Counted from the stretch's first letter, positions 1 to 58,227 are shown. The stretch is DNA of 64,000 nt from an uncultured Bacilli bacterium (GCA_944363525.1 CALVUF010000003.1:42306-106305); one strand, 5' to 3'. The notes: a model not told the origin generated them from the letters alone. Translations and numbers: made by a program.

Positions 1-711
1 GGCGGAAGAAGAAGCTGTCTTGGGAAGTAGGGTAGGAATAAGGGGACTCGCTTAAATGGAATATGGCTTTTCTGTTCATGACGAATACACATATTAGTGG
101 GGACGATTCGGAAATGAAACAAATATCGATTTACCTTATTTCCTTGCTTTCGAGAAATGTTTCCAGACATCCTTTCGGCATACTGAACAAATAAGATGAA
201 TGGAATTCGCGAACTCGCGCCCACCGGCTTTTCTCCCCTCAGTTTTTCTTTGTTTAGGGGGGCTGCCCGATGAACGAAGAGGAGCTTTTTCGTCTTGTTT
301 CGATTCGCTGATTGCCGAGATGGACTATCCGTATATCCAAAACGCCTTCACTGGCCATTGGGTCTATTTACCCGGTTTCGCCCTGATGAAAGTTCAATGA
401 GGATGGCTTTATACCATCCGCAGGTTTTGGGCTTTGATTATTCCGACCTTGCTGGCGCGAAAGTCATGGCGACGAGCCTCGACTATCTTCCGGCGGATGA
501 GGCCGGTCGATATCAAGGAGCTAAAGCAAACCTAAAGCCTCGGAAGCGCCCAGCCAGCCGATGATTTGGCCGAAGCCGAACTCAAGGCTACTTTCCTAGA
601 TGAAAACGGCTATTCTTTATTTATGATGATAACCTTCTGAGCGCTTATGACTAGACTTATTTGTCTACTGGAAATCTTTTGGATTACCAGATGAAAATCT
701 AGATTATTGAT

Positions 712-1596
712 TCATTTGCTTTTGCGCCGCTTCCGCATATAGATGGGGAGGGAGGCGTAAATTAGGTCGCTTGACTCGACAAAATAGAGCAGTTTTTGAT
801 GGGTCTCCGCCCCCTCTAGATGGAGGAGGGTCTTTTTCCCGAGGCGGATGGCTTTGACGGTTTTGTAGGCCTTCTCGTCGTTATGGAGTTCATCTTCGGT
901 TAAGAAGCAGCCGCGGGGCCGGAAATCGAGGGAAGCGGGATAGACGGCGGTATCGACTTCCACATCGTCGGTTATCCGTTGCTTTTCTTTGTCGGCATAG
1001 TTCAAATTGTCCAAATCGACATAGAGGTCGACCTTTTGACCTTTTCGATAGGCTTTCTCCGAGACGAAGGGGATGATGATCCCGCTGGTGTCGCGGCCAT
1101 AATAGGTCTTCTTGTCCCCATAGTCCTTTTCCCCTTCGATCTTGACCTCGAAACGGTGCCCGCCCTTTATTTCCTCAGTTCGGACGTCGCTGGCGAGGAA
1201 GACGACCGATTTGGGATTTAGAGATCCAATCAAGCGTTTATCCAGCGAAGCTTTTTCCTCTTCGCTTAATTCGGCTTTGTCCAGTTCCATCTCGATAAGG
1301 GGGATGGCGTTGCTTAAGTTGCGTTCGGTCTTTTTGTCGAATAGATGCAATTTGCCGACGTCGAAACGGACCTTTATCTTGTCCCCTTTGGCCAGGGTAT
1401 TGGGCTCGACTAAGGAGAGGATGGTGAATTCCTTCCTTCCGCCAAGATGGAAATAGACTAAGGTCTGCTCGCCCAGCCGCTCGACCAATTCCACTTCGAC
1501 CGGGAAGCCGCTTTCATCGATCTTGATGTCGCTTGGCCGGATGCCAAGGTAGGCTTCGAGAGGGTAAACGTCCTCGCTAAGCTGGCATAGTTCCAC
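712..1596 (-). CDS. C-terminal part of the same MalK-like ATPase (TOBE/regulatory domain plus a ~190-aa extension)
   Basis: If one A is removed from the A7 run (+ strand T7 at 1654..1660) the ATPase continues as ...[44 protein letters not shown]..., a typical MalK C-terminal transport-associated domain. This ORF alone lacks an N-terminal ATPase domain. Confidence 0.8.
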
Positions 1597-2404
1597 CTCG
1601 GGGATGGCGATGTCGACCGATTCGTCGATGGAGACAAAGTGCTTTTCCTCGCCTTTTTTTGACGATGGTCCCCTCGAAGATGTTCATCTGCGGGCTGCCT
1701 AAGAAGGTGGCGACGAATATATTCCCCGGATGGTCATAGAGGTTCATCGGGGTATCGACTTGTTGAATCAATCCATCTTTCATGACCACGATCCGGTCGC
1801 CCATCGTCATCGCTTCGGTCTGGTCATGGGTGACGTAGACGAAGGTGGTTTGGATGTCCTGATGGAGTTTCGATATCTCGGCCCGCATCGCGACCCGGAG
1901 TTTGGCGTCGAGGTTGGACAAGGGCTCATCGAAGAGGAAGGCGGAGGGTTCGCGGACGATGGCCCTTCCGAGGGCGACCCGTTGCCGCTGGCCACCGCTT
2001 AGTTCCCGCGGTGTCCGCTTGAGCAGATTCTCGATGCCTAGGATCGCGGCCGCTTTATGGACTTTTTCCTCGATGACCTCTTTCTTAGCCTTTTGGCATC
2101 GGAGCGAATAGGCCATGTTCTCATAGACGCTCATATGGGGGTAGAGGGCGTAATTTTGGAAAACCATGGCGATATTGCGGTCCTTTGGCTCCAAATCGTT
2201 GACGTAGGTATCGCCGATGAAGATGTTGCCGGAGGTGATTTCCTCCAAGCCGGCGATCATCCTTAGGGTGGTCGACTTCCCGCATCCGGAAGGACCGACG
2301 AAGACGATGAATTCTTTGTCGTGGATCTCTAAGGAGGCGTCGGAGACGGCCCGGACCCCGCCTTTGTAGACCTTGGTGACGTTTTCCAATCTGATTCTAG
2401 CCAT
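1577..2404 (-). CDS. Sugar ABC transporter ATP-binding protein, MalK/MsmK family (ATPase domain portion of a frameshifted gene)
   Basis: Translation shows Walker [10 protein letters not shown], the ABC signature [10 protein letters not shown] and Walker [12 protein letters not shown]. The reading frame runs out right after FEGTIVKK at an A7 homopolymer, and the sensible continuation is in the adjacent frame (ORF 712..1596). Confidence 0.9.
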
Positions 2405-2410
2405 GTTTTT

Positions 2411-3244
2411 CTATCCTTTCACGGCCCCGGAGGTGAGCCCAGAGACCATATTCTTAACGAGGAGGAAGTAGAGGACGACGATGGGGACGGCGATGAAGAC
2501 TGCCCCGGCGGCGAAGCGAGCGAACTCGGTTTCCCCTAAGCTCATGAGTCCGACTGCGACCGTCCAATTGTCCCGGTTCTTCAATAGGATCTTCGGGAGG
2601 ACGAAATCCGACCAAGGCCAGGTGAAGCTGGTGAGGGCGGTATAGACGATCATCGGCTTGGCCAATGGCAAAGTGATGGTGCGGAACACCCTTACGTTAT
2701 TGGCCCCGTCGATCCGGGCCGCCTCATAGATCGAGGTCGGGATGGTATCGAAGAACCCTTTCTGCACTAAGTAGCCCATCGGGGCGGTGCAAGAGTAGAT
2801 GGCGATTAAGCCGAAGAGGTTGTTGATCAGCTGAAACTGGGTCATGAGGATGTAGATGATGGTCATCGACATGAAGGAAGGGAACATTCCTAAGACTAAG
2901 GCCCCTTTCATCAATGGTCGCCTTGCCTTGAATTCGAAACGGGAGATGACGTAGGCGGTCAAGATGACGAGGATGGTGGAGAAAACGCATGAGCAAATGG
3001 CGATGATCAAAGTGTTGAGCAACCACTTTGGGTAGTTATACATCGCTGTGTCGGTGAAGAGGGTGATGAAGGATTGGAATGAGTAGGATTCGGGGAAGAA
3101 GCCGGGGATCGAATAGAGGTTCCCGGTCGAGGAGAAGGACGCCAGAATGAGCCAGAGACAAGGGAAAAGGAAGACAAAGGCGACGACGATCAATAAGCAA
3201 TAGGTGATCAAGATATCGATGATCTTCTTGGTTTTGCCTTTCAT
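2411..3244 (-). CDS. Carbohydrate ABC transporter permease (MalG-like)
   Basis: Polytopic membrane protein with EAA loop motif EAARIDGANNVRVFRTITLPLAKP. It lies directly upstream of the ATPase in the same operon. Confidence 0.9.
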   Translation of the reverse strand: MKGKTKKIIDILITYCLLIVVAFVFLFPCLWLILASFSSTGNLYSIPGFFPESYSFQSFITLFTDTAMYNYPKWLLNTLIIAICSCVFSTILVILTAYVISRFEFKARRPLMKGALVLGMFPSFMSMTIIYILMTQFQLINNLFGLIAIYSCTAPMGYLVQKGFFDTIPTSIYEAARIDGANNVRVFRTITLPLAKPMIVYTALTSFTWPWSDFVLPKILLKNRDNWTVAVGLMSLGETEFARFAAGAVFIAVPIVVLYFLLVKNMVSGLTSGAVKG

Positions 3245-4677
3245 CGGTAGGTGTCCTCCTTCTTATAGGATCCGCTGCGAACGTAGACCAGCAGCGAGAT
3301 AGCCGAGGTAATGATGAAGATCAATAACGAGATGGCGGCCCCGATGCCGTAGTAGTCGTTGCTGATCGAGAGGTTGTAGAGCCAGTTGATGAGCAAATCG
3401 GTGTCGGAGGCGCGGAAATAGCCTTCGCTCACGATCCCGCCCCGGAGGAAGTAGAAGGTCCCGAAGTTATTGAAGTTCCCGATGAACTGGGAGATGAGGG
3501 TCGGGGTGGTGGCGAAGATGACGTAGGGCAAGGTGATATCGAAGAACTGCTTCCGTTTGCTCGCCCCGTCGATGTCGGCTGCCTCATAGAGGTCTTTCTG
3601 GATGTTGGAGAGGATCCCGGTGGCGAGCAGCATGGTCGTGGGGACGGTGAGCCAGGTGTTGACGAAGAGACCGATCCCGCGGGCCCACCAAGTGGAATCG
3701 AGGCCGAGGAAATCGACGATGTTCTCATCATGCATATGGGCGTCGCTTAGGTAGTAGTTGATTGGCCCCATGGTCGAGAACATGAATTTGAAGGCGATTA
3801 AGGTGATGAAGCCGGGGATGGCGTAAGCCAAAATCGGGAAGGCCCGCCAGAAGGCCGAGCCCTTGACGCATTTCTTCGATAATAGCAACGCCAAACCTAA
3901 ACCTAAGAAGTAATTGATGAAGGTGGAGAGGAAGGCCCAGGCTATATTCCAGCCGAAGATCTTGAAAAACGTCGTACCGATGTTGGTCGCCCCGAAGATG
4001 GTGGCGAAATTGTCAAAGCCGACGTAATCGACCAAATCGGTTGGGACATCGATCTCGCCACCGAAATTGGTGAAGGCGACTAAGATCATCATGACGATCG
4101 GGATGACTGAGAACACCATAACCCCTAATAAGGGGACGAAGAGGGCGACGTAAGGGAATTTCCTCCCGGTTAAAGAGGCGACGTCCTCTATGAAGGTCCG
4201 GGGTTTTTGGCCCTTTAGCTTGGTAAGCCGGGCCGAAAGGGCGCTCCGAAGGCTGCTAAGGTAAAGCAAGAGGAAGCAAATGATGATGAAGACGGTCAGG
4301 ATCCCCATCAGCATCAAGACGACCGAATTGTCGCCGACCACCCCGGACCAGGGATCGGATTCCTTGGTCCCGAGGGTGAATAGGCCCACTAGGTATTCCC
4401 CGCCGAGCAAGGCCATGAAGACGATAAAGAGGATTTCAAGAAGCAGGAACATGATGCCTTTGGCGTATTGGCCATAGGCGATATTGCCGGCCCCGCAGAA
4501 TAGCAGGGAAAGAAGGACTTTCCAATCGGCTTGGGCGAAGAAGTCCGCAATACCGGCCCCAAAGGATTTGACTTTCGTCCACTGCTTTTGGAAGAAAGAT
4601 TTCGTTTTTGCGGGAATGTTTCGGAAATAGTCGCCAATTGAATTGACTATTTTCCTCCCGCCTCTTTCGCTTTCCAT
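3241..4677 (-). CDS. Carbohydrate ABC transporter permease (MalF-like, long N-terminal region)
   Basis: EAA motif EAADIDGASKRKQFFDITLPYV and multiple TM segments. The 4-nt overlap with the downstream permease fits operon organisation. Confidence 0.88.
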   Translation of the reverse strand: MESERGGRKIVNSIGDYFRNIPAKTKSFFQKQWTKVKSFGAGIADFFAQADWKVLLSLLFCGAGNIAYGQYAKGIMFLLLEILFIVFMALLGGEYLVGLFTLGTKESDPWSGVVGDNSVVLMLMGILTVFIIICFLLLYLSSLRSALSARLTKLKGQKPRTFIEDVASLTGRKFPYVALFVPLLGVMVFSVIPIVMMILVAFTNFGGEIDVPTDLVDYVGFDNFATIFGATNIGTTFFKIFGWNIAWAFLSTFINYFLGLGLALLLSKKCVKGSAFWRAFPILAYAIPGFITLIAFKFMFSTMGPINYYLSDAHMHDENIVDFLGLDSTWWARGIGLFVNTWLTVPTTMLLATGILSNIQKDLYEAADIDGASKRKQFFDITLPYVIFATTPTLISQFIGNFNNFGTFYFLRGGIVSEGYFRASDTDLLINWLYNLSISNDYYGIGAAISLLIFIITSAISLLVYVRSGSYKKEDTYR

Positions 4678-4682
4678 AACTT

Positions 4683-6164
4683 TTAGGCCAAGGTGGTGAT
4701 CGCTTCGTGGATCTGCCGGACCATCTCGTCTAATCCGGCTTGGTAATCGGCCTGCTCCTTATATTTCTGTTGGCTCGCCGGCCTCGTCGGGTCGGTCGCC
4801 AAGTCTTTGTTCAAGGTCTCGCCCGGCGTCCAGATTTGGCCCGTTTCGGTTAAGGAGGGCATTAAGGTGATTAAGCCGTCCTCTAACCGGGAATAGATAT
4901 TCTCCGATATGGCAGAGTCGGAATCAGCAACGACATCAGCCCGGCAGGGGGCGACGCCGAGCATCGTCTCGCGGAGCTTGTTCATCTCGAAGCTGGTGGC
5001 GAAGTTGACGAAGGCTAAGCAAGCGACCGGGTAATCGGTGTAGGAGGAGATGGCATAGCCATTGATCCCGCCCATGGCCTTCATGTCGATTAGTTCAGGA
5101 TTCTCTTCGGAGAGATCACCGGACTTCGGCAGTTTGGGTAAGTCGGCGATGACGAGGTTCTCTTTGGCGGCGGTTTGGGCCTCGCTAGCGCTCATGCCAT
5201 CCGCGACGTATTCGGTCACCATCTCGGTCGTGAAGTTGTTGGTGACGTCGGGGGTGGTCATGGTGGCGAAGATCTCGCCGCGGGCCAATTGGCCATAGCA
5301 AGTGGTGTTGATTGAATCGTCGACGCAGGTTGGGCCCATGGTCTCGGCTAACTGGCGGATGATCCGCGCCCCTTTCCAGGCTTCGCCTTTATTGAAACCG
5401 ATGTCATCGGGGTTGGTTCCATCGTCGCCGAAGACATAGGCCCCATAGGAGAAGAGGTAGCCGGAAGAAAAATAGACGTCGTATAAAGCTTTCATATATC
5501 CCCGTTTGGACGGATCGGCGGCATTGATTTCCTTGGAATACTTGTATAGGGCATTCCAGCTTTCGACCATGTCGGGGATCCCGTTGTTATTGGCGTCCGC
5601 TCCTTCCGGGACCATGTCTTTCCGGTAGAAGAGCATCGGGGCTTGGGCGTTGACGGGGACGCCGAAGGAATAGCGGACCCCGGACTCGATGCCTTTGTAG
5701 GCGTTGATGGCTGATTCGGGGAGATGCTCATAGGCCTCGATCTTCCAAGTCGGGAGGGGCATGACATGACGGCCTTGGACGTATTTCATGATGACGTCGT
5801 TGGCTTGGTAGAGGACATCCGGCCCATAACCATAGGGGCCATCTTCCGCCAAGTTGGAATATTGATCGATGTTGGCGTCGACCGCCTTGATTCCATATTC
5901 GGCGTATTCCTCGTTGAAGGCATTGAGCAACTCGTCGAGGTAACCGAGCGATTTGGCGGTGTCGTTTTCGAGAATCTGGAGGGTGATGTTCCGTTCCAAC
6001 TCTCCTTCGAAGCGGTCAAAGACCGGCATGTCGGAATTGGCTTCGGTGATTTCCTCCCCCGGGGTGGTTCCGCCAGGGTTAGTGGAACTATTGCCGGTTG
6101 TTGGTCCGCATGAGGCGAGAGCCAAAAGGGCGAGGGCGGCGTAGATGGTGTGGGATTTTCTCAT
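4683..6164 (-). CDS. Extracellular solute-binding lipoprotein (family 1 sugar/maltodextrin-binding protein)
   Basis: Signal peptide with lipobox LALASC followed by a Gly/Thr/Pro-rich linker. It is ~490 aa and sits between the GH13 gene and the permeases. Confidence 0.85.
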   Translation of the reverse strand: MRKSHTIYAALALLALASCGPTTGNSSTNPGGTTPGEEITEANSDMPVFDRFEGELERNITLQILENDTAKSLGYLDELLNAFNEEYAEYGIKAVDANIDQYSNLAEDGPYGYGPDVLYQANDVIMKYVQGRHVMPLPTWKIEAYEHLPESAINAYKGIESGVRYSFGVPVNAQAPMLFYRKDMVPEGADANNNGIPDMVESWNALYKYSKEINAADPSKRGYMKALYDVYFSSGYLFSYGAYVFGDDGTNPDDIGFNKGEAWKGARIIRQLAETMGPTCVDDSINTTCYGQLARGEIFATMTTPDVTNNFTTEMVTEYVADGMSASEAQTAAKENLVIADLPKLPKSGDLSEENPELIDMKAMGGINGYAISSYTDYPVACLAFVNFATSFEMNKLRETMLGVAPCRADVVADSDSAISENIYSRLEDGLITLMPSLTETGQIWTPGETLNKDLATDPTRPASQQKYKEQADYQAGLDEMVRQIHEAITTLA

Positions 6165-7855
6165 TTGTCTAACCTCCTTATGAGAAAGCCGTTGGGCTGA
6201 AGCGTTTTCCCTTCATAACGGTGGGCCAGTAGGTGGCCGTGGTCGGGGAGTTCGATCGGTTGATCGGTGGCGTTTATATATAGCTCGATTCCTTCTTCCC
6301 CATTGCTTCGGACGAGATGGAGAAGCCTGTTTTCCGCCTGGCAAGCGAATTGGGGGAGCCGGCTGATTTGCTTATTATGGATACCGATTAGGATCCGGAG
6401 CAATTCCGAATGAGGAGTGGGCTTTTCCCCGTCAAGTGGGAAGCAGCGGCGGGAGTCAGGGTCGAAATTCCCGGGTAAGGGAATCTCAGTCCCATAATAG
6501 ATCCCAGGGCAGCCGGGGAGGAAGATGAGGGCGGATAAGGCGCATTCCAATTGGTCGATGTTCTCTTGACAAAGGGTGTAAAAGCGGAAGGTATCGTGGG
6601 AGTCGAGAAGGTTGAGATTGGCCTGAATCTGGGTGGGCCGGAGGTTGGCGTAAATTCGGTTTAAGGCGGAGGCGCATTCGGCCGCGTCAGTTTCCTTTGA
6701 GGCTAAATATCTTTCCAAAGCATAGGTGACCGGATAATTCATGACACCGTCGAATTCGTCACCTTTTAGGAAGGCGTGGGGGTTATGCCAGTGCTCGCCG
6801 AGGATCAAAGCCTCGGGATAGGCGGACTTGATGGCTTTTCGGAAATCCCGCCAGAATTCGTGGCTCACCTCATCGGCGACGTCCAGCCGCCAGCCATCGA
6901 TGCCGAGCTCTAGATAATGGAGGGCGACGCTTTTTAAATATTCGGCGCAGGATGGCGAATCGGGGTTGAGCTTAGGCATGTAAGGGCAAACGGAGAAGAA
7001 CTCGTAGTTCGGGTGCTTTAGGTCGATATGGTCGCCTTGGACGAAGAACCAATCCCAATAAGGCGACTTCCTTCCGTTTTTAACCGCGTCTTGGAAGAAA
7101 GACGATTCGGAGGACAGGTGGTTGAAGACCGCGTCTAAGACGATCCGAATCCCTAAGGCGTGGGCCTCCTCGATCAGATTCTTCAGCGTTGCCTCATCCC
7201 CTAACTGGGGATCGATGGTCAGATAATCGACGATGTCGTATTTATGGTAGGAGGGGGAAAGGAAGATCGGGGTCAGGTATAAGACGTTGACCCCGAGGTT
7301 GGATAAATAGGGCAAACGCTCGATGATCCCGGCTAAATCCCCACCGGCAAAGGACTTTGGGGTCGGTTTGTCCCCCCAAGCCAAATTGATGTAAGAACGG
7401 TCTTTGCCCTTGTCGCCAAGTTTGAAGCGGTCAGGGAATATCTGATAGAAGAAAGCCTGATCGAGCCAAGCGGGCAAAGAGGGGATATCGACCGCATGGA
7501 GATAGGGGAACTGGAAGAAATCCTTATAGGAGTAGGCGAAATCGTAATGGTCGAGCAAGCCCCGCTCGGTATAGAAATAGGAATGGCTGTCCTCGACGAT
7601 TTCGAAGACATAGGCCAGCCGTTTGTCAGGAATAGGGGCGATGGCTTCGAAATAGGCGAAGTCCTTATCCAAATAAGCGAGCTGCATCGCAATCTTTTCT
7701 CTGGCGCTTGGGAAAGGGTATTTGCCGCCGAAATGGGCGTAGACCTTCAGGTTCCGGTCTTCATTTCCGAGACGGAGGCGGAGGCAAAAATAAGTTTCCG
7801 ATACCAAGGATGCGTAGGGGGATTCGCTTAGATGGAACAGAGCTTGGGTATTCAT
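6161..7855 (-). CDS. GH13 alpha-glucosidase of the neopullulanase/cyclomaltodextrinase/maltogenic amylase type, cytoplasmic
   Basis: GH13 conserved regions are present: VLDAVFNH (region I), GIDGWRLDVADEV (region II), LGEHWH (region III) and LLDSHDTFR (region IV). It also has the FYQIFPDRF motif typical of the neopullulanase subfamily. No signal peptide. RBS AAGGA lies upstream of the ATG at 7855. Confidence 0.88.
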   Translation of the reverse strand: MNTQALFHLSESPYASLVSETYFCLRLRLGNEDRNLKVYAHFGGKYPFPSAREKIAMQLAYLDKDFAYFEAIAPIPDKRLAYVFEIVEDSHSYFYTERGLLDHYDFAYSYKDFFQFPYLHAVDIPSLPAWLDQAFFYQIFPDRFKLGDKGKDRSYINLAWGDKPTPKSFAGGDLAGIIERLPYLSNLGVNVLYLTPIFLSPSYHKYDIVDYLTIDPQLGDEATLKNLIEEAHALGIRIVLDAVFNHLSSESSFFQDAVKNGRKSPYWDWFFVQGDHIDLKHPNYEFFSVCPYMPKLNPDSPSCAEYLKSVALHYLELGIDGWRLDVADEVSHEFWRDFRKAIKSAYPEALILGEHWHNPHAFLKGDEFDGVMNYPVTYALERYLASKETDAAECASALNRIYANLRPTQIQANLNLLDSHDTFRFYTLCQENIDQLECALSALIFLPGCPGIYYGTEIPLPGNFDPDSRRCFPLDGEKPTPHSELLRILIGIHNKQISRLPQFACQAENRLLHLVRSNGEEGIELYINATDQPIELPDHGHLLAHRYEGKTLQPNGFLIRRLDK

Positions 7856-8693: not shown

Positions 8694-10247
8694 TTAGGCC
8701 GCGGCCTTGATGGTGATGATGTGGGAGTAGACGTTGTAGCTGAGGTCGTAGGTGCCGGCGACTTTGCACTTGAAGTTGTAGTTGCCGCCGGTGGGGTTGG
8801 CCGCTTCCCAGACATCGGCCGAGTTGGCGGTGTCTGAGTAGGTGAAGTTGTAGTCAGCGGCTTTGTTCGACCACCCATCGCCGACGGTGGTGGATCCAGC
8901 GGTGAAGCCGGCGATGGCGAATTCGGCGTTGGCCACCATCGCTATCCCTTTGAGTTCGTAGACTCGGGGATCGGTGGCGCTGACGGTGAACTTGTAGGTA
9001 TCTTTGAGGATATCGTTGTCATGGACAGTGGAGGGGGTCCAAGATAGACCGTCGCTGCTGGCCATGGTGCCGTTGAGGTAGTAGTCATAGACCGGTAAGG
9101 TCTTGGTCTTATCAACGGTGGCGGCCAGGCTTCCGGCGGCGTTATCGGCGCCCGGAGTGTAGAGGAAGGTGTATTCCCCAGCTTCCTTGGCGATGATGTT
9201 GTTACCGTTCTCCGGCTTAGTGAAGAGGGCTTGGGAAGCGGTGTCGAGGTTCGTGTAATTGATGTAGATATTGGCGTCAGCGGTCGAGCCATCGGCTTGG
9301 GTGGCGATGGTGTGGAACATGAATTCCTCGTTGGCGTCGAGATAGATAATCAGTTTGTAGGTCCCATCTTGCTGGTCCGCGAACCGGGTGGTGACATTCA
9401 ACTGGTTCTGCCAATTGGTGATTTTGGATCCTTTGATGTAATAGGCGAGGGTGGTCTCCGGTTTTTCTTCAACTGGGTCGCCATTCCGCTTGATGGTGAT
9501 ATTGTCGAGGTTATTGATGTGCTCGGTATCCTCGGGATCGATATGGTCGGGATAGGTCTTCAAGGTGACGGTGTAGTTGCCATCCTGGAGAATCTTGATG
9601 TTCGATTTCCGGTTCGAGGCCGCGATGCCACCCGCCCCTTCGACGATGTCGGACAGCTCAGACGCATTGATAATATAGCCGACGCCGTACTGCCAATCCC
9701 AGGCGTAGGGATCGGTCTCGGTTTCTTTAAACGAGGTGATCTGGAACTGATCGTTGGCGTAGAAATCGGTCGTGATGGTGAAGACGTTTTTGTTGGCTTC
9801 CTTGGTCAACTTATGGGCGTCAGTGGGGTTATCGCCCCAAGAGGAGGTCGAGAGGACGGGGGAAGTGCCGGCCCCGGCGAGGTAGAACACCCGGGTGTCT
9901 TCTTGATAAATTGAAACGGCCCCAAAGAGGGTGGTGTCCTCGGTGAGGGGGGTCTTGAAGTCGTAGATCCGGGAGAAGGTCGGGGTTAGGTACCAGCCAA
10001 CGAACTCACCTTCGCTCGGAGTGTAGGCGTAATTGGTGGGGACTCCACCGGTTTCGGCGAGCGTTTCGGTGTGGACGGTTTTGCCGTCGACTTGATAAGT
10101 GATGGTGACGCCGGTTTCCTCGGATTCGGTGGGGGTGGAAGTTGGAGTGGGTTCCGGCGGGGTGCTGGATGTGGACGTGGCGGCTGGGTCGCAGGCGACG
10201 AGGCCGAAGGCGGCCAGCAAGACGACGAACGCTTTTTTCTTAAACAT
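8694..10247 (-). CDS. Surface lipoprotein with N-terminal Listeria-Bacteroides repeat (Flg_new) and four ~100-aa internal repeats; putative glycan-binding
   Basis: Lipobox LVAC and a T/S/P-rich linker. The segment TITYQVDGKTVHTE...GEFVGWYLTPTFSRIYDFKTPLTEDTTLFG matches the Flg_new repeat pattern. Four aromatic-rich modules recur (VFYLAGAGTS..W, LAYYIKGSKITNW, DYYLNGTMASSDGLSW, AIAGFTAGSTTVGDGW). RBS AAAGGAGG precedes the start. Confidence 0.7.
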   Translation of the reverse strand: MFKKKAFVVLLAAFGLVACDPAATSTSSTPPEPTPTSTPTESEETGVTITYQVDGKTVHTETLAETGGVPTNYAYTPSEGEFVGWYLTPTFSRIYDFKTPLTEDTTLFGAVSIYQEDTRVFYLAGAGTSPVLSTSSWGDNPTDAHKLTKEANKNVFTITTDFYANDQFQITSFKETETDPYAWDWQYGVGYIINASELSDIVEGAGGIAASNRKSNIKILQDGNYTVTLKTYPDHIDPEDTEHINNLDNITIKRNGDPVEEKPETTLAYYIKGSKITNWQNQLNVTTRFADQQDGTYKLIIYLDANEEFMFHTIATQADGSTADANIYINYTNLDTASQALFTKPENGNNIIAKEAGEYTFLYTPGADNAAGSLAATVDKTKTLPVYDYYLNGTMASSDGLSWTPSTVHDNDILKDTYKFTVSATDPRVYELKGIAMVANAEFAIAGFTAGSTTVGDGWSNKAADYNFTYSDTANSADVWEAANPTGGNYNFKCKVAGTYDLSYNVYSHIITIKAAA

Positions 10248-10329
10248 GCTTGTTCCTCCTTTGCTTGTGAACTTAAGCGTTTAAGTTAATTACATATTAC
10301 AAGCCGCCGGAACGCATATCAACAAAAAA

Positions 10330-30036: not shown

Positions 30037-31635
30037 TCAGTCGAATAAATCGGGGAAGGTGGTTTCGAAGTAGTCGTAGATGGTCTGGTCGTGATAAGAG
30101 AGGGCCATTTCCTCGACATAATGCTGCTGGGCCGCTTTCTGGTAGGATTCGGTATCGGAGACCAACCCGGCGACGGAGTAGATGATGTCGTAGATGTTCT
30201 TCCCTTCCATCTTGTCGTAGGAGGCATCGCCGCCTTGGACCAGTTTCGGGGCCTTGACCGCTTCGTCAACCCGGACGATGTACCAGGTCGAGGAATCCTT
30301 ATCGTAGATGCAATAGGGGTATTCCTCATCGTGCTCGTACTGCTCGGGGACCATGTAGTAGGACCCGCCGACGTACCAGCCGAAGTTGCCTTTGGCGTTA
30401 TCTTCCGCCGCCCCTTCCCGGTCGACTTCGTTGGCGACCGTGATCTTGAACAGACGGTTCGAGATCGAGGAGGCGAGGTCGGTTAAGCCGGTCGAGGTGT
30501 ACCAGCCTTCGGTGACGTGGCTGGTGGCGACGGTTTCCCGCTTCTTGATCTCCAAGCCGGTCTCCTTGGTGTAGGCGCCAGCATTGGTGAAGTCAGTCGA
30601 GGAACCGGTGACGTTCCGGTCATCGGAGAGTTCCTTGTAATCCTTGGCGATTTTGCCATAGGTCGTCTCTTCGTAGGTGGCCTCGGTGTTGTCATCGGCC
30701 GAGGCGGCCACGGTGGTGAAGCCGGCTTCGGCGTAGATAGTCTGGGCGAACTGGAAGTCTTCGTTGTTCTCCGCATCGACGAAGTAGCCTTTGTAAAGCT
30801 GATCGAGGAAGTGGAGGTCGCGGTACTTCGGATCGACATCGGTGCCATTGAGGACCAACTTGGCATAGGAACGGACTAACCGTTGGGTGCCGAATTGGAC
30901 GCCATCGATGTCAGGAAGGGCGATGTATTGGACCTTCCGGGCATAGGAACGGCCGAGGACGCCGTAGTTGTTGTCGAGGAGGTATTGCTCGACTAAGGCT
31001 TTCCGATAGATCGTCGGGAGGATGCTCCGCTCGATGTAGTCCTCGTAGGTGACGTACATGTCGGTGAAGTAATCCTCGACGTTTTGGTAATCCTTAGCCC
31101 CGTCGAGGGCGGTTTCCTTATAGGAAGCGACGGTGCCGAGCTTATAAAGCTCCGCGACCTGGGCCCGATAGAATTCCCGTTCGAGGAAGAGGGACCGCCT
31201 CTGATAGGTGGTGTTCTCGACGACGGACCACATCTGGGTCTTGATCTGATCGACGACGTGGCTTATGAAGGCTAAGGCGTTGGCCTGGCCTTTCTCCCCT
31301 TCGCCATAGACCGGATGGTTGGCGACGAAGGAGGCGAGTTTGGAATTGTCAGCATAGACCTCGTACATCCCGCCTTCGCCGAAGAACTCACCGAAGAGCC
31401 CTTTGGAATAAAGAGCGAGGATGTTGTTGAGGACCTTCTCCGAGTTGGAGTCGCCGGCCGTGACCAAAGCATTGTAGATTTGGCCCATGTTGTTGTTGAC
31501 GACGTCATCGAGGTTGAGGATCGGGGCGTCGGCGACATCAGTCGGCAATCCGGCTTCGACGTCGGAGCAGGACGCGAGGCCAAGGGTGGTGGCCGCTAAG
31601 GCGGTCAAAGCAAAGGCTTTCAGTTTATTTTCCAT
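30037..31635 (-). CDS. Large surface lipoprotein of unknown function (paralogue-like of the adjacent PrsA-type lipoprotein N-region)
   Basis: Start at MENKLKAF... (GGAGGAG RBS upstream). Lipobox LGLASC. About 530 aa, acidic, Tyr-rich. A rho-independent terminator (GGGCA...TGCCC + T-run) lies at about 29990..30025. Confidence 0.7.
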   Translation of the reverse strand: MENKLKAFALTALAATTLGLASCSDVEAGLPTDVADAPILNLDDVVNNNMGQIYNALVTAGDSNSEKVLNNILALYSKGLFGEFFGEGGMYEVYADNSKLASFVANHPVYGEGEKGQANALAFISHVVDQIKTQMWSVVENTTYQRRSLFLEREFYRAQVAELYKLGTVASYKETALDGAKDYQNVEDYFTDMYVTYEDYIERSILPTIYRKALVEQYLLDNNYGVLGRSYARKVQYIALPDIDGVQFGTQRLVRSYAKLVLNGTDVDPKYRDLHFLDQLYKGYFVDAENNEDFQFAQTIYAEAGFTTVAASADDNTEATYEETTYGKIAKDYKELSDDRNVTGSSTDFTNAGAYTKETGLEIKKRETVATSHVTEGWYTSTGLTDLASSISNRLFKITVANEVDREGAAEDNAKGNFGWYVGGSYYMVPEQYEHDEEYPYCIYDKDSSTWYIVRVDEAVKAPKLVQGGDASYDKMEGKNIYDIIYSVAGLVSDTESYQKAAQQHYVEEMALSYHDQTIYDYFETTFPDLFD

Positions 31636-33763
31636 CGTAGCAAGCTCCTCCATAAGCCCATTCGCCGGTTCCTTCCCGAGCGGCAACGCTGTTGTAGCCG
31701 ATGGCGCAGGTTTCGGAAATCAGCTTCTGGCTGCCGTCTTGTTTCATGGTGCGGGCGGCATCCTGCTGTTCGAGGTATTCGGCGTAGGTGACCCAGTCAT
31801 CGTCGAAGGACTTTTGGGTGTCATCGACGGCTTTCTGACGGGTGATGCGGATGTAATCCTTGATGAGCTTCCCGAAATCGGCATCGGCGAAGGTGATCTT
31901 CGAGCTGTCGAGTAATTCCTGGAAGATGTAGTTGTCGAGGTTGGAATCGAAGTTCTGGATGGCGTCCTTGACGACCTTGGCCTTGTCGGCGTAGCTGGAG
32001 TCAGCCGAGACCAGCTTATTGACGAAGGTGGTCTTGGCGGTCGCCTTCCCATCGACTACATAATAAGGATAATAGTCGGCTTCCCTATCCGCGGTAACCG
32101 AGCTCGGATTGCTCGGGAGGCGGTCCGGGGTGTGGATGGTGTAGTAGTCGTTGAGCGAAGTAATGTTCGAGCTCGACTTATTGGCATCGTAATCGGCCTT
32201 GGTGTTTTCCTTGATGGTCTTGTTGGTCGCATCGTAGCTCAAGCCATATTCGGAGAGGGCTGAACGGTCGGCGACGATGAAGTGGATGCCTTGGTAGGAG
32301 GAAGTGCCGGCCCGGACGGCGAGGATGATCTGGCCCTTGTCGTTGGTCAAGACATTGCTGTCGATGTCCGGGAGGATGCCGGTGGTGTCGACCGAGAATC
32401 CCGGAAGGGCGGCGTATTTGGTATCGAGCGTACCAGCGGTGATCGGCTGTCCGTTTTCATCCGCTTCCTTGGTGACATCATAGGTTTTGGCTGGGCTGTT
32501 TTCCTCAGTGATGTCACCCACCGGGGTGGCCCCGTCGGCCGTGATTTTCCCGTCAAGGAAGTCGTTATAGGAGATGCGGTTCGGGGTGATGACGGCGATC
32601 TGATGATTATTGAAGTACTTATTGAAGAGAATGTTCCGGGCGTAGTAGGTTGCGGAGTTCTCATTGACCTGGTAGCCGAGGTCCGGCTCACCGCCCTTGG
32701 CGGAATAGGAGACGGAGGCATCGGCGAGGGCGACGGCGGCGCCATAGGGGATGGTGCCGAGCTTGCGGTCGATAAATTCCTGCTTGACCGAGGTGCCGTC
32801 ATCGAGCTTGGCGTCATCGCTCGGGAGGAGACGGTTCTTCATCTCGTCGGTGGCGTAGGCGTTGTTGGCCTGATTGGAATAGAGGGCGTCAAAGGCATAG
32901 AGGCCGAGTTTGAATTCGGGGACGAATTCGGTCGAGAGGTCCATGATGCCCAGGTCGCCGTAATCCGACGAGGATTCGGTGTCATCGGAGAGCTCATAGG
33001 CGATCGAGCCGAAGCTCAAGCGCTGAGCGACCGGTTCGGTGCCATGTTTATTGTCCGAGGTGTCGGCGCCGGCGAGTTCCTTGATGACGTCGCCAAGCTT
33101 CTCCGACTCAGTGGCCGAGATGGTGGCTTGGGCGTGCTCATTGCTGCTAGCCGATTCAAACTTAACGAGGATGTGGGAGACGTGATAGGGCATCCGGGTC
33201 TTGAGGTAGCCATCGCTAACCGGGCCGAATTCCGCTTCGGCCTCAGCGGTCCGTAGGCTATCCCAGAGGCTGCCATCCCGCATCTTGCCAAGGTTGCTAT
33301 TGGTGTAATAGTCCTTGGTGAATTGATCTTCTTCTAATTCGTAGAGCTTAGCGTCGAGCAATTCGTCCACGTTATCGACGTTGTTCGAATCCAAGAGGGC
33401 TTCGAATTCCTCTTGGTAGCTGGTGCCATTGTTATTGGCGTTGGTCTCGGCCTGGCTCTTAATGCCATCGACGGCATTTTGGGCTTGATTCTGCAAGTCG
33501 GCGAGTTTGCTGGCTTGGGCCGGTTCCTGGTAGTACTGGCGGATCAATACTTCCTTGACCTTGGAATAGGCGGTGCTGGCGGAGCTGGCGGAATTCTGAT
33601 AATCGCCGAAGAGGTCCTCGGCGGTATATTTGACTCGATTCCCGGACGCATCCGTGTAAGTTAGCAGCACGCCTTCGTCGTAAGTGACCTCGGAGCAGGC
33701 AGCGAGGGCGCCGCCGGCGACGAGGGCTCCGACTAGACCAAGGGTGAGTTTAGTTTTCTTCAT
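31625..33763 (-). CDS. PrsA-like foldase lipoprotein with parvulin-type peptidyl-prolyl isomerase domain and long C-terminal extension (712 aa)
   Basis: Lipobox ALAAC. The parvulin core reads MPYHVSHILVKFE...FGSIAYELSDDTESSSDYGDLGIMDLSTEFVPEFKLG. The protein is much longer than canonical ~290-aa PrsA. Confidence 0.75.
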   Translation of the reverse strand: MKKTKLTLGLVGALVAGGALAACSEVTYDEGVLLTYTDASGNRVKYTAEDLFGDYQNSASSASTAYSKVKEVLIRQYYQEPAQASKLADLQNQAQNAVDGIKSQAETNANNNGTSYQEEFEALLDSNNVDNVDELLDAKLYELEEDQFTKDYYTNSNLGKMRDGSLWDSLRTAEAEAEFGPVSDGYLKTRMPYHVSHILVKFESASSNEHAQATISATESEKLGDVIKELAGADTSDNKHGTEPVAQRLSFGSIAYELSDDTESSSDYGDLGIMDLSTEFVPEFKLGLYAFDALYSNQANNAYATDEMKNRLLPSDDAKLDDGTSVKQEFIDRKLGTIPYGAAVALADASVSYSAKGGEPDLGYQVNENSATYYARNILFNKYFNNHQIAVITPNRISYNDFLDGKITADGATPVGDITEENSPAKTYDVTKEADENGQPITAGTLDTKYAALPGFSVDTTGILPDIDSNVLTNDKGQIILAVRAGTSSYQGIHFIVADRSALSEYGLSYDATNKTIKENTKADYDANKSSSNITSLNDYYTIHTPDRLPSNPSSVTADREADYYPYYVVDGKATAKTTFVNKLVSADSSYADKAKVVKDAIQNFDSNLDNYIFQELLDSSKITFADADFGKLIKDYIRITRQKAVDDTQKSFDDDWVTYAEYLEQQDAARTMKQDGSQKLISETCAIGYNSVAAREGTGEWAYGGACYDGK

Positions 33764-43358: not shown

Positions 43359-43361
43359 AGG

Positions 43362-43512
43362 ACGCTTCAGGGCGACGAGAATTACGTCGACTGGCGGTGA
43401 CAGCCCGCGAGCGCAAGCACGAATCGGTGAAATTCCGATGCCAACGGTACAGTCCGGATGATAGAAGTGACCGAACTATGTCATTTTCCTCCCCTGAATC
43501 GGAGGATTTTTT
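43362..43512 (+). ncRNA. FMN riboswitch (RFN element) with terminator/SD-sequestering hairpin
   Basis: Conserved RFN blocks are CAGGGCGACGAGAATT...GGCGGTGACAGCCCGCGAGCG and GGTGAAATTCCGATGCCAACGGTACAGTCCGGATGATAGAAG. These are followed by the hairpin CCTCCCCTGAATCGGAGG plus a U-run that includes the GGAGGA SD of ribU. Confidence 0.85.
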
Positions 43513-51254: not shown

Positions 51255-51579
51255 CCGACCCGGACGACTGCTGCCGTAAGGTAGAGGAAAGTCCATGCTC
51301 GCACCGCCTGTGATGGCGGTAGTGATTGCGCTGAAGGAAGAAATAACTTCAGGTGCGCGGGAGCGCGCAACGGCGGACCAATCTCTCTAGCAGAAGGCGG
51401 TCCCTAAGGTGCCACAGAGACGAGCTTGATGGCGACATCAAGATGAAACGTTGGTAAACCCCACAAGCGAGAAACCCAAATTCGGTAGGGGAAGCGCCCA
51501 CGGCGAAACGAAGCCACGGGGGCCAGGCTTAGCCTGAGATAAATTGTCGTCCTCGACATAACATGGCTTACAGGGTCGG
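51255..51579 (+). ncRNA. rnpB: RNase P RNA (rnpB), type B (Firmicutes-type), compact
   Basis: GGTAGAGGAAAGTCCATGCTCGCAC matches the B. subtilis rnpB P4 region. GTGCCACAGAGACGA...GGTAAACCCCACAAGCGAGAAACCCAAATTCGGTAGGGGAA matches the P10-P12/P4 3' strand. The P1 helix is CCGACCC...GGGTCGG. It lies between gpsB and pgsA as in B. subtilis. Confidence 0.88.
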
Positions 51580-55706: not shown

Positions 55707-56528
55707 ATGCGAGTCCTTTTCTTAGGCGACGTCGTCGGGCCGATTGGCCTCCAAGCCGTGGAGACCCTCCTCCCTTCGCTTAAGGAAAGGCTTTCGCCGC
55801 ATCTAAGCATCGTCAACGGGGAGAACGCCTCCAAGGGGCGGGGCTTAACCAGGGCCGACTATAACCGGCTGAAAGGGGCCGGGGCCGACGTCATCACCTT
55901 AGGCAACCATTTCCTCGATAAGAAGCAGATTTCCTCCTTCATCGACGATTGCCCTGATTTGCTTCGGCCGGTCAATTCCTCTGATTATTCAAAAGGACAA
56001 GGGGTTGGGGTCTATGAAACCTCAGCCGGGCCAATTGCCGTCATCTCGGTCCTCTTGCCGGCCTTCGTTCAAAATAAAGTCGATAACCCGTTTGAAGTGG
56101 TCGAGAAATTGCTGCCGGATTTACCGCCAGTCCGCATCATTGACCTCCATGGCGAATCGACTTCCGAGAAACAGCTTTTCCATCATTACTTCCGTGGGAA
56201 GTGCTCGGCGATACTCGGTACCCATACCCATGTCATGACCGCCGATGCGGATATAAAAGACGGAACGGCGTTTATGGCTGACGTCGGGATGTGCGGGGAA
56301 GCCGATTCGATCATCGGCGTCGATCCCGATAGCGCCATCCGCCGGATCATCAAACAAGACGGGGCCCATTTCCATTGCAATGAAACCGGGGTTTCTTTGC
56401 TTTGCGGGGCCTATTTAGAAATCGAAGCGAATGGGAAGGCGAATAAAATACTCCCCTTCCGCTTCCTTGACCATAAGGAGATTGCCTATGAGCCGTTGCC
56501 AAATCATATCGTTGCCGGACTTGACTAA
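55707..56528 (+). CDS. ymdB: Metallophosphoesterase YmdB (2',3'-cyclic nucleotide phosphodiesterase family)
   Basis: MRVLFLGDVVG...GENASKGRG...ITLGNH calcineurin-like motifs. Immediately after rny as in Bacillus. Confidence 0.9.
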   Translation: MRVLFLGDVVGPIGLQAVETLLPSLKERLSPHLSIVNGENASKGRGLTRADYNRLKGAGADVITLGNHFLDKKQISSFIDDCPDLLRPVNSSDYSKGQGVGVYETSAGPIAVISVLLPAFVQNKVDNPFEVVEKLLPDLPPVRIIDLHGESTSEKQLFHHYFRGKCSAILGTHTHVMTADADIKDGTAFMADVGMCGEADSIIGVDPDSAIRRIIKQDGAHFHCNETGVSLLCGAYLEIEANGKANKILPFRFLDHKEIAYEPLPNHIVAGLD

Positions 56529-58227
56529 AGCCCGGAATCGCCAGGATGGGGCCTCGATCAAATACGATGAGGCCGTCTATAGCGAGGCCTTGAAACAGTT
56601 CGCTAATGGCCGTAAATACCTGGTCAAGACTTTCGGCTGCCAAGGCAATGTCCGGGATGAGGAGATCATCTCCGGTTATTTGGAGAAGGCCGGCTTTACC
56701 AAAACCAGCGACGAGAAAGAAGCCAACCTCGTCATCATCAATACTTGCGCCGTCCGGGAAAACGCCGAAGACAAGGTCTATGGCGAGATCGGCAAGTTCA
56801 AGGGCAACACCAAAGCCGACAAGAACTTCATCCTCGGCGTCTGCGGCTGCATGATGCAGGAGGAGAAGAAGGCCGAGAGCCTGATCAAGACCTACCCTTT
56901 CATCAAACTCATCTTCGGGACCCATAACATCGCTGACCTCCCTTCGATGCTCGATCGGATCATTTCTAGCGGGCATGGCCTCGTCGACGTCATCTCCTAT
57001 CCGGGCGACGTCATTGAGAACTTACCCTCGATCCGGCTTGATCCTTACAAAGCCTTCGTCAACATCTCCTATGGCTGCGATAAGTTCTGCACTTATTGCA
57101 TAGTCCCCTATACCCGGGGACGGGAAAGAAGCCGGCCGCTGCAATCGATACTAGATGAATGCCGGAAGCTGGTGGAGGATGGTTATCAAGAGATCACCCT
57201 TTTAGGCCAGAATGTGAACTCCTATGGAAAGGATTTCCATGACGGGACCAACTTCGCGACCGTCTTGGAGGAAGTGGCGAAGCTCGGGATCCCTCGGCTC
57301 CGCTTCACCACCTCCCATCCCTGGGATTTCTCCTTGGATATGCTCGATGTCATCGCCAAGTATCCCAACATCATGAAGTGCATCCATCTCCCCGTCCAAA
57401 GCGGTTCGACCGCGGTCCTCCGCCAAATGGGGCGGCGGTATACTCGGGAGCAATATTTAGAATTGGTCAAAGCCATCCGGGAAAGAATGCCCGGCTGCGC
57501 TATCACGACCGATATTATCGTCGGCTTCCCCAATGAGACCGAGGAGCAATTCGCCGAGACTTTGACCCTCTGCGAGGAAGTCAAATATGACGCCGCCTTC
57601 ACCTTCATTTATTCTCCGCGGGCCGGGACCCCGGCGGCTAAGATGGTCGATAACGTTTCCGATGAGGTGAAGCACGAACGGTTTAATCGCCTCCTCAAAG
57701 TCGTCGAGGCCGGGGTCATTTATCACTCCTCCCAAATGGTCGGGAAGGTTTACGATGTCCTAGTCGATGGGCCGAGCAAGAAAAACGAGGACATCCTGTG
57801 CGGCTATACCGAATCGAATAAGCTGGTCAACTTCCCGGGCCCGAGCTACCTCAAGGGCCATATCGTCAAGGTCAAGATCGTGGAGGACCATGCTTTCTCG
57901 ATGCTTGGCGAACTCCAAGACGACCCGGTCGAGGTCTTATTGAAATCGGCTAAAGGGAAGTTGGCGAAAGAGCCGGCTTATATCGAATACCTCGCGGCAA
58001 AAAAAGCCTATGAGGAAGACGCGGAACTCCAAGCCAATCTCAAGGCCAAAGAAGCGGCCCAAAAGGCCTTAGCCTTATCGATGGGAACCGATGAATATGA
58101 TGCAAAGAAAGCGGCTTTTGCGGCCCTTTCGGAACTAGTTGAGAATAATCCTAATTACATCAATTTGGTGTCCGCGACCGCCGATCTGCGGGCTTTATTC
58201 GTGGAAATGAAGGCTATTCTCCAATGA
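56488..58227 (+). CDS. miaB: tRNA-i6A37 methylthiotransferase MiaB (radical SAM + TRAM)
   Basis: MTTase N-domain cysteines (KTFGCQGN...NTCAV), radical SAM motif CDKFCTYC and a TRAM domain. AAGGAGA RBS precedes the ATG. It overlaps the ymdB 3' end, and the C-terminal ~100 aa form an extra tail. Confidence 0.85.
   Translation: MSRCQIISLPDLTKARNRQDGASIKYDEAVYSEALKQFANGRKYLVKTFGCQGNVRDEEIISGYLEKAGFTKTSDEKEANLVIINTCAVRENAEDKVYGEIGKFKGNTKADKNFILGVCGCMMQEEKKAESLIKTYPFIKLIFGTHNIADLPSMLDRIISSGHGLVDVISYPGDVIENLPSIRLDPYKAFVNISYGCDKFCTYCIVPYTRGRERSRPLQSILDECRKLVEDGYQEITLLGQNVNSYGKDFHDGTNFATVLEEVAKLGIPRLRFTTSHPWDFSLDMLDVIAKYPNIMKCIHLPVQSGSTAVLRQMGRRYTREQYLELVKAIRERMPGCAITTDIIVGFPNETEEQFAETLTLCEEVKYDAAFTFIYSPRAGTPAAKMVDNVSDEVKHERFNRLLKVVEAGVIYHSSQMVGKVYDVLVDGPSKKNEDILCGYTESNKLVNFPGPSYLKGHIVKVKIVEDHAFSMLGELQDDPVEVLLKSAKGKLAKEPAYIEYLAAKKAYEEDAELQANLKAKEAAQKALALSMGTDEYDAKKAAFAALSELVENNPNYINLVSATADLRALFVEMKAILQ

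Follow-up and report, generated by a model that had tools for sequence, protein, structure and literature searches.

Closest described systems

The ATPases of CUT1 ATP-binding cassette (ABC) importers, among them E. coli MalK, B. subtilis MsmX (PDB 6yir), and M. tuberculosis SugC, are ~360-370 aa long and combine the motifs of a nucleotide-binding domain (NBD) with a regulatory domain (RD) made up of OB_MalK and TOBE_2. Here, we describe a malK/msmX-type gene with the same NBD motifs, the same regulatory modules, and a common operon context, located in a 64,000-nt stretch of DNA from an uncultured Bacilli bacterium (GCA_944363525.1, CALVUF010000003.1:42306-106305; hereafter the window, with positions counted from its first letter). 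It differs from the described ATPases in that the protein would be 563 aa long, with an appended second domain of predicted regulatory type (RD′), and in that the gene is frameshifted. Our analyses indicate that the window probably carries a clonally inherited loss-of-function frameshift in a malK gene of unusual architecture, within a clade in which malK appears to have been lost recurrently.

Two bodies of work on CUT1 ATPases are relevant to such a loss. In Bacillota, a single 'multitask' MsmX-type ATPase often serves several CUT1 importers, and one such ATPase can be exchanged for another (PMC7658222). In E. coli chemostats, adaptive malK mutations recur and act via the regulatory role of MalK (PMC7863352). 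The malK/malT mutations of evolved E. coli resemble the situation in the window's clade in that many independent lesions strike malK while other transport genes stay intact. However, the E. coli malK mutations are mostly missense changes that release MalT (PMC7863352), whereas the clade lesions appear to be of null type, in an uncultured Bacillota-type organism with no evidence of a MalT-like partner, and any selection on them is putative.

With respect to the lesion itself, the homopolymer 'authentic frameshifts' described by Baranov et al. 2005 (PMC1088944) likewise involve one-base expansion of an A-run that results in two overlapping open reading frames (ORFs). Compared with frameshifts that are rescued by slippage, the run in the window is 7 nt long, below the ~9 nt at which slippage becomes relevant, and rescue would take a 1-nt deletion in the mRNA, whereas slippage favours insertions (PMC5574713). 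Finally, the appended domain was compared with tandem TOBE/di-Mop modules, specifically the ModE C-terminal domain (1h9r/1b9m), ModG (1h9j), and the trans-inhibition domains of ModC and MetN. Unlike these, RD′ has neither a Pfam TOBE match nor a significant profile match, and it has an additional helix at model residues 20-28 and ends in a polybasic tail.

One gene split by a single inserted base

The gene is present as two minus-strand ORFs of 275 aa (1577..2404) and 294 aa (712..1596), which overlap by 20 nt. A T7 run on the plus strand corresponds to A7 on the coding strand, where the junction reads ATC GTC AAAAAAA GGC GAG GAA AAG, with the A7 descending from 1660 to 1654. The reading frame used by the 3′ ORF already opens at 1683, and the two open frames share 107 nt around the run. 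Removal of one A produces a single MalK/MsmX-type ATPase of 563 aa, in line with the original prediction, which had proposed this repair and a reconstructed length of ~560 aa.

Searches with the repaired protein placed the Pfam domains ABC_tran at residues 21-162, OB_MalK at 236-293, and TOBE_2 at 286-355, with OB_MalK straddling the break at residue 250/251. The ABC ATPase domain (PF00005, E = 3e-31) has its Walker A, Q-loop, LSGGQ signature, Walker B, and H-loop all present, and the OB_MalK and TOBE domain is contiguous with the NBD only after one A is removed, being split in the sequence as it stands. The NCBIfam UgpC/MalK subfamily profile recognized residues 1-363 in one match that runs through the junction (486 bits; cut-off 432), and profile positions 1-355 of 357 were covered in one stretch. 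The E. coli MalK equivalog profile reached 403 bits, under its cut-off of 568. By these profile scores, the gene is a member of the UgpC subfamily and not an E. coli-MalK equivalog.

Relatives of the gene provided a second line of evidence. Both ORFs are present in the public protein collection, as found by exact look-up, and the 90%-identity cluster to which the 3′ ORF belongs has 18 members. At least 10 distinct intact 563-aa proteins are among the 15 members listed, and all of them have the predicted junction, such that the proposed removal of one A is exact and the computed length is matched in nature. Profiles and intact orthologues thus agree that a +1 insertion in an A-run has divided a single malK-type gene into the two ORFs. 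The possibility that orthologues share the same split, also raised at the outset, did not hold, since the intact relatives are single uninterrupted ORFs. Moreover, of five runs of at least 7 bases in the window, only the A7 coincides with a switch of two long frames. Because at least 10 intact relatives have the predicted junction, and this is the lone run at which frames switch, the split is not a chance arrangement, and the intact 563-aa frame is the ancestral state. The locus should be annotated as one disrupted malK, not as two genes.

The A7 allele in independent assemblies

The original prediction had left three options for the A-run, namely a sequencing error, an inactivating mutation, and a slippage-prone phase-variable tract. 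Nine contigs encode exactly the same 275-aa product, down to its out-of-frame tail, and we retrieved three of them: a SPAdes node of 107 kb (L001, ENA ERZ24773499), a contig of 48 kb (L002, ENA ERZ24773507), and one from the Logan assembly of ERR4096580 (L003). All three have A7. There were no mismatches to the window in L002 (over 5.4 kb) or L003 (over 4.1 kb), and there was one in L001 (over 5.4 kb). A7 is thus present in at least four assemblies that came from different runs and from three assemblers or pipelines, with flanks that are 100% identical. The lone mismatch in L001 is a TGG to TAG change in malF codon 110 (L001:1056, equivalent to window 4349). Because L001 carries this extra malF nonsense codon, it and the window are separate data sets; in another metagenome, the same clone took a second operon hit (malF W110*) on the A7 background.

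The exact repaired 563-aa protein was absent from ~15 billion proteins, meaning that no assembly represented there has A6 on the window haplotype. Rather, the A6 allele (L004/L005) resides on a haplotype ~40 single-nucleotide polymorphisms away within the gene. The other four runs of at least 7 bases in the window are not located at a frame switch, and hence nothing points to widespread homopolymer error in the window assembly. An artefact of sequencing or assembly, with a true A6 genome and an intact gene, would fit with homopolymer indels being the commonest consensus error, with the source genome being metagenome-derived, and with the matching SPAdes contigs being thinly covered (~6-8x, going by contig names). 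It is opposed by the recurrence of A7 with identical flanks across assemblers and pipelines, by the missing A6 version of the window haplotype, and by the other four 7-base runs. We consider an artefact very unlikely, and the least credible of the alternatives treated here. A genuine mutation that has become fixed in a single circulating clone is strongly favoured as the origin of A7. Among the three options, the inactivating mutation is therefore the one upheld, A7 being reproduced in independent assemblies and clonally inherited, while the error option is contradicted by the same A7 in assemblies of other runs.

The third option posits a contingency tract in which reversible A6/A7 slippage toggles the transporter ATPase ON and OFF. 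In its favour, the lesion lies inside a homopolymer, A6 is the state of the closest intact strain (L004/L005, gene identity 97.6%), and both alleles occur in one run accession series (ERR4096580 and ERR4096632). Yet the A6 and A7 haplotypes are ~40 gene sites apart, and length polymorphism on one background was not observed, since 4/4 assembled copies of the window haplotype have A7. Comparison with orthologues showed that the tract varies between strains, as AAGAAA in L006 (CASFTG010000003, the GTDB species representative) and AAAAAG in the sister species, with no length heterogeneity within the window haplotype. It is thus an interrupted tract in relatives, and at 7 nt not a long conserved repeat. 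Seven bases are short next to the runs typical of contingency loci. Additionally, other strains lose malK by irreversible lesions, as detailed below. Phase variation is unsupported, and we give it very little credence. A scan of JGI metagenomes for the A6/A7 site with degenerate flanks returned no matches.

Expected product and possible recoding

In the case of a fixed inactivating mutation, the reading that we favour, replication slippage would have lengthened an A6 tract at codons 249-250 by one base. The ribosome would then read 25 codons out of frame and stop, yielding a bare NBD from which RD and RD′ are lost. The 5′ ORF keeps the Walker motifs, the signature, the Walker B sequence FLFDEP, and the H-loop sequence YVTHDQ, and an AAAGGA ribosome-binding site is located 8 nt 5′ of its ATG. 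For the 3′ ORF, no plausible start was found, the GTG at 1596 being inside its only GAGG and no start being available after the stop of the 5′ ORF. A scan for promoters and terminators gave a number of sites no higher than in shuffled sequence, and neither a start nor an internal promoter was seen for the 3′ ORF. From this arrangement, we infer that the A7 allele would be null or strongly hypomorphic.

A small fraction of full-length protein may persist via +1 ribosomal slippage at AAA-AAA-AGG, and we considered whether leaky or programmed recoding, by such ribosomal slippage or by transcriptional slippage, provides useful full-length MalK. At the level of translation, tRNA-Lys can re-pair perfectly one base 3′ on AAA-AAA-A, and a +1 shift at any point within the 107 nt where both frames are open brings back the C-terminus. 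Furthermore, in AAA-AAA-AGG-CGA, the 0-frame codons AGG and CGA are rare Arg codons (2.9 and 2.4 per 1000 codons in the window, respectively), as compared with 32 per 1000 for the +1-frame GGC, the most common Gly codon. Measurements in E. coli put non-programmed frameshift suppression at 1-10% (PMC10861913). However, the AGG codon is an automatic by-product of an A inserted before GGC, no stimulatory element was identified, and the frame change is not conserved, in that orthologues are single uninterrupted ORFs. At the level of transcription, disrupted genes with A or T runs are restorable in the mRNA, but selection against slippage-prone runs is evident from ~9 nt (PMC1088944). Insertions from slippage on A/T runs rise exponentially with run length, and transcription deletions are rarely tied to homopolymeric runs (PMC5574713), whereas correcting the A7 allele takes either the loss of 1 nt or the gain of 2 nt. 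Rescue during transcription is less likely because the run is shorter than 9 nt and because a deletion, not the favoured insertion, is required. Overall, we regard recoding to useful levels as quite improbable.

Recurrent malK lesions

Other broken copies of malK came to light through the cluster listings and the extension search, and their DNA revealed lesions of several kinds; with the window A7, the clade has at least seven independent lesions in this gene. Within the same species, a G deletion at nt 147, just after Walker A, was found in L009 (ENA) and L010 (Logan assembly), and also in the protein variant P0013. Two longer deletions are also found in the species, one of 52 bp across the Walker B/D-loop region (L011) and one of 74 bp within RD′ (L013). 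Sister lineages (~76-80% nucleotide identity) have a 17-bp tandem duplication at codon ~90 along with a 1-bp deletion (L012), E252* (GAG to TAG, L014), and E297* (an in-frame TAG, L007). The malE, malF, and malG genes visible in the malK-broken loci are all full length, the one exception being malF of L001 with its nonsense codon. Internal disruption affects malK in 5/15 of the cluster members listed, versus 0/42 for MalF, MalE, and the upstream amylase together (Fisher p = 7e-4), these being counts of distinct sequences in cluster listings and not of phylogenetically independent samples. This suggests a pattern of recurrent loss, wherein malK has been repeatedly knocked out in the clade and malE, malF, or malG only rarely.

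Such loss could be tolerated or favoured if a shared MsmX-like ATPase energises MalFG; alternatively, maltodextrin import or its regulation may be dispensable in some hosts. Null lesions specific to malK would suggest that the dedicated ATPase is either a dispensable part or a selected target of the operon, which fits the concept of shared 'multitask' ATPases in Bacillota.

The same lesions bear on whether the 275-aa, NBD-only product still powers MalFG, in which case the frameshift would have brought deregulation and not loss of transport. Several lesions in relatives lie 3′ of the NBD (E252*, E297*, and the 74-bp deletion in RD′), the 5′ ORF retains all catalytic motifs plus a ribosome-binding site, and selection in E. 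coli has repeatedly favoured changes to the regulatory domain of MalK (PMC7863352). In addition, substitutions on the window lineage comprise 6 synonymous changes 5′ of the frameshift versus 2 non-synonymous changes 3′ of it (p = 0.036), making 6/6 of those 5′ of the break synonymous. However, the NBD is strongly constrained in all comparisons, and the ratio of 6 synonymous to 0 non-synonymous changes is not specific to this lineage. The G147 deletion, the 52-bp deletion, and the 17-bp duplication destroy the NBD itself. Moreover, in CUT1 ATPases the RDs hold the MalK dimer together, as known from MalK structures. A working NBD-only protein is thus unlikely in our view.

Returning to loss of function, we also considered that malK loss is positively selected, with the NBD-RD-RD′ MalK acting through its paired regulatory domains as a brake (trans-inhibition or inducer exclusion) on a maltodextrin importer that a generic MsmX-type ATPase could also drive. 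We hold this to be speculative and rather doubtful. If true, gut populations would repeatedly break malK to deregulate uptake of starch products, with the A6 tract as one of several mutational routes, and RD′ would count as a novel type of sensor domain in ABC importers.

The C-terminal extension

Residues 364-563 had been described in the original prediction as a Mollicutes-style extension without a recognisable fold, and neither part of this description was borne out. No Pfam match to these residues was found at E <= 1. We built a profile from the window sequence and two relatives and used it with HMMER against 1.84 billion representative proteins, where it found six proteins. One, P0099 (577 aa), is an intact full-length relative of the same kind, and the other five are fragments or remnants. 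A word-index homologue search with the extension gave two matches and missed the query's own cluster; exact cluster look-ups and the profile search were used instead. With six matches among 1.84 billion, the extension is confined to a very small clade, and beyond these six metagenomic protein clusters no homologue was detectable by sequence profile, and nothing in this search linked the extension to Mollicutes. With respect to the organism, class B RNase P RNA, RNase Y, DnaD, and a MiaB-YlbF fusion in the window point to a host from the Bacillota in the broad sense. The GC content is 52.6%, and all conserved genes examined are full length under table 11, which excludes a code with UGA as Trp and indicates that the organism uses the standard code.

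Among intact alleles, the ratio of non-synonymous to synonymous substitution rates (dN/dS) for RD′ was 0.17-0.23, with 0 non-synonymous changes in the NBD, and by this measure RD′ is under purifying selection in those alleles. An AlphaFold2 model of RD′, made from a 12-row alignment, was all-beta with one helix (mean predicted local distance difference test [pLDDT] 85.7; predicted template modelling score [pTM] 0.73), and a longer model of 294 residues had the same secondary structure. Foldseek with the RD′ model retrieved SugC, GlcV, Thermococcus MalK, and B. subtilis MsmX (E ~1e-3, probability 1.0, identity 15-19%). Two fold searches agreed on the nearest solved structures, with the regulatory domains of MalK, SugC, and MsmX, and the di-Mop of ModE, as best matches.

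The structure prediction and profile comparison that had been proposed for the extension therefore gave different answers. The predicted model of aa 364-563 matches solved TOBE/MalK regulatory domains, while no sequence-profile match to TOBE families was found with Pfam (E <= 1) or hhalign. Specifically, hhalign profile-profile comparisons of RD with RD′, and between the halves of RD′, returned nothing significant (probability <10%), with motif-level echoes only. Based on the model, the extension is best read as a second, strongly diverged MalK-type tandem-TOBE domain, giving a putative NBD-RD-RD′ architecture. The case for RD duplication is made by predicted structure, because the profile comparison finds nothing beyond those motif-level echoes. 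A literature search for doubled MalK regulatory domains returned nothing relevant. Although the frameshift itself is routine, the domain architecture is rare, and a CUT1 ATPase with a cryptic second regulatory-type domain, apparently limited to a tiny clade, would constitute a natural experiment in how importers gain regulatory inputs.

Every homologue ends in a conserved polybasic tail that follows a hydrophobic strand (window 715..745; P0001, P0002, P0097, P0099, P0100), and this tail might bind membrane or nucleic acid. Remnants of the gene were also recovered. An operon remnant (L008:2821-3458) contains the 3′ end of malF, ten codons from malG, and the final ~110 codons of malK, and in the remnant protein P0100 a GH13 N-terminus is fused in frame to the last ~85 extension residues. 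Selection on the last ~85-120 aa, which are kept in L008, P0097, and P0100, was considered as an explanation and rejected, since the remnants were found by searching with that region (ascertainment bias).

Taken as a whole, we assign a probability of about 0.8 to the reading that the locus encodes a MalK/MsmX/UgpC-type ATPase of a maltodextrin-type CUT1 ABC importer and carries a clonally inherited loss-of-function frameshift in this gene of unusual architecture, amid recurrent malK loss. Several points weigh against it. The evidence for A7 comes from assemblies, not reads, such that minority A6 or A8 sub-populations are possible, and the A7 assemblies represent one clone, making them independent as libraries and assemblers but not as mutations. 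Six of the other lesions come from one ENA project (ERZ162680xx-1xx), and of these other lesions the G147 deletion is the single one that a second assembler also recovered. The comparison of 5/15 with 0/42 rests on distinct sequences, without phylogenetic correction. The substitute MsmX-like ATPase is hypothetical, the analysis of this genome having covered 64 kb. As for RD′, the five models made from the 12-row alignment span pLDDT 62 to 86, and the profile-profile comparison of RD with RD′ was not significant.

Genomic context

The ATPase gene adjoins genes for a pair of permeases of the MalF/MalG type and for a solute-binding protein of family 1. In order, the cluster comprises GH13 amylase, malE, malF, malG, malK, GH13 amylase, with a divergent LacI-type regulator (Table 1).

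Table 1. Positions of the split ATPase gene, its parts, and neighbouring genes in the window.
Feature	Position	Strand	Remarks
malK/msmX-type CUT1 ABC importer ATPase gene, disrupted	712..2404	-	563 codons after removing one A
5′ ORF	1577..2404	-	Complete NBD, K249-K250, then 25 out-of-frame residues and TAG
A7 homopolymer with +1 insertion	1654..1660	-	A6 in nearest intact strain
Canonical regulatory domain RD, OB_MalK + TOBE_2, aa 236-363	1315..1699	-	Pfam; severed by frameshift at aa 250/251
C-terminal extension RD′, aa 364-563	715..1314	-	Predicted second tandem-TOBE regulatory-type domain, strongly diverged
malG-like permease, 277 aa, intact	2411..3244	-	BPD_transp_1
malF-like permease, 478 aa, intact in window	3241..4677	-	BPD_transp_1; W110* in same clone in L001
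malE-like lipoprotein solute-binding protein, 493 aa	4683..6164	-	SBP_bac_1, SBP_bac_8
GH13 neopullulanase-type amylase, 564 aa, first gene of cluster	6161..7855	-	Alpha-amylase_N + Alpha-amylase
Divergent LacI-family regulator, 252 aa	7893..8651	+	Pfam recognises the helix-turn-helix (HTH) only
Second GH13 amylase gene start, 3′ of malK, runs off window	1..79	-	557-aa Alpha-amylase gene at equivalent place in L001/L002

The LacI-family regulator may have a shortened or highly diverged effector-binding domain. The spacer (79..711) that separates malK from the GH13 gene downstream of it is variable. In L004/L005 it has a 192-aa opposite-strand ORF with no Pfam match, whereas the window spacer is without most of that ORF and has short broken ORFs only.

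Elsewhere in the window, a MiaB-type methylthiotransferase (56431..58227, plus strand) combines UPF0004, Radical_SAM, and TRAM with a C-terminal Com_YlbF-like domain, an unusual fusion, and its ORF has a ~60-aa N-terminal lead that overlaps the preceding ORF. An FMN riboswitch (43359..43473) lies directly 5′ of a gene for an energy-coupling factor (ECF) S-component (RibU-like), and the class B RNase P RNA (51256..51575) is of Bacillota type. Five large ORFs (517, 480, 383, 549, and 712 aa) in 8694..13105 and 30037..33763 had no Pfam match at E <= 1e-5 and may be lineage-specific proteins. Finally, a 677-aa protein (61684..63717, plus strand) has one N-terminal ABC_tran domain, followed by ~500 further residues without a match at E <= 1e-6.

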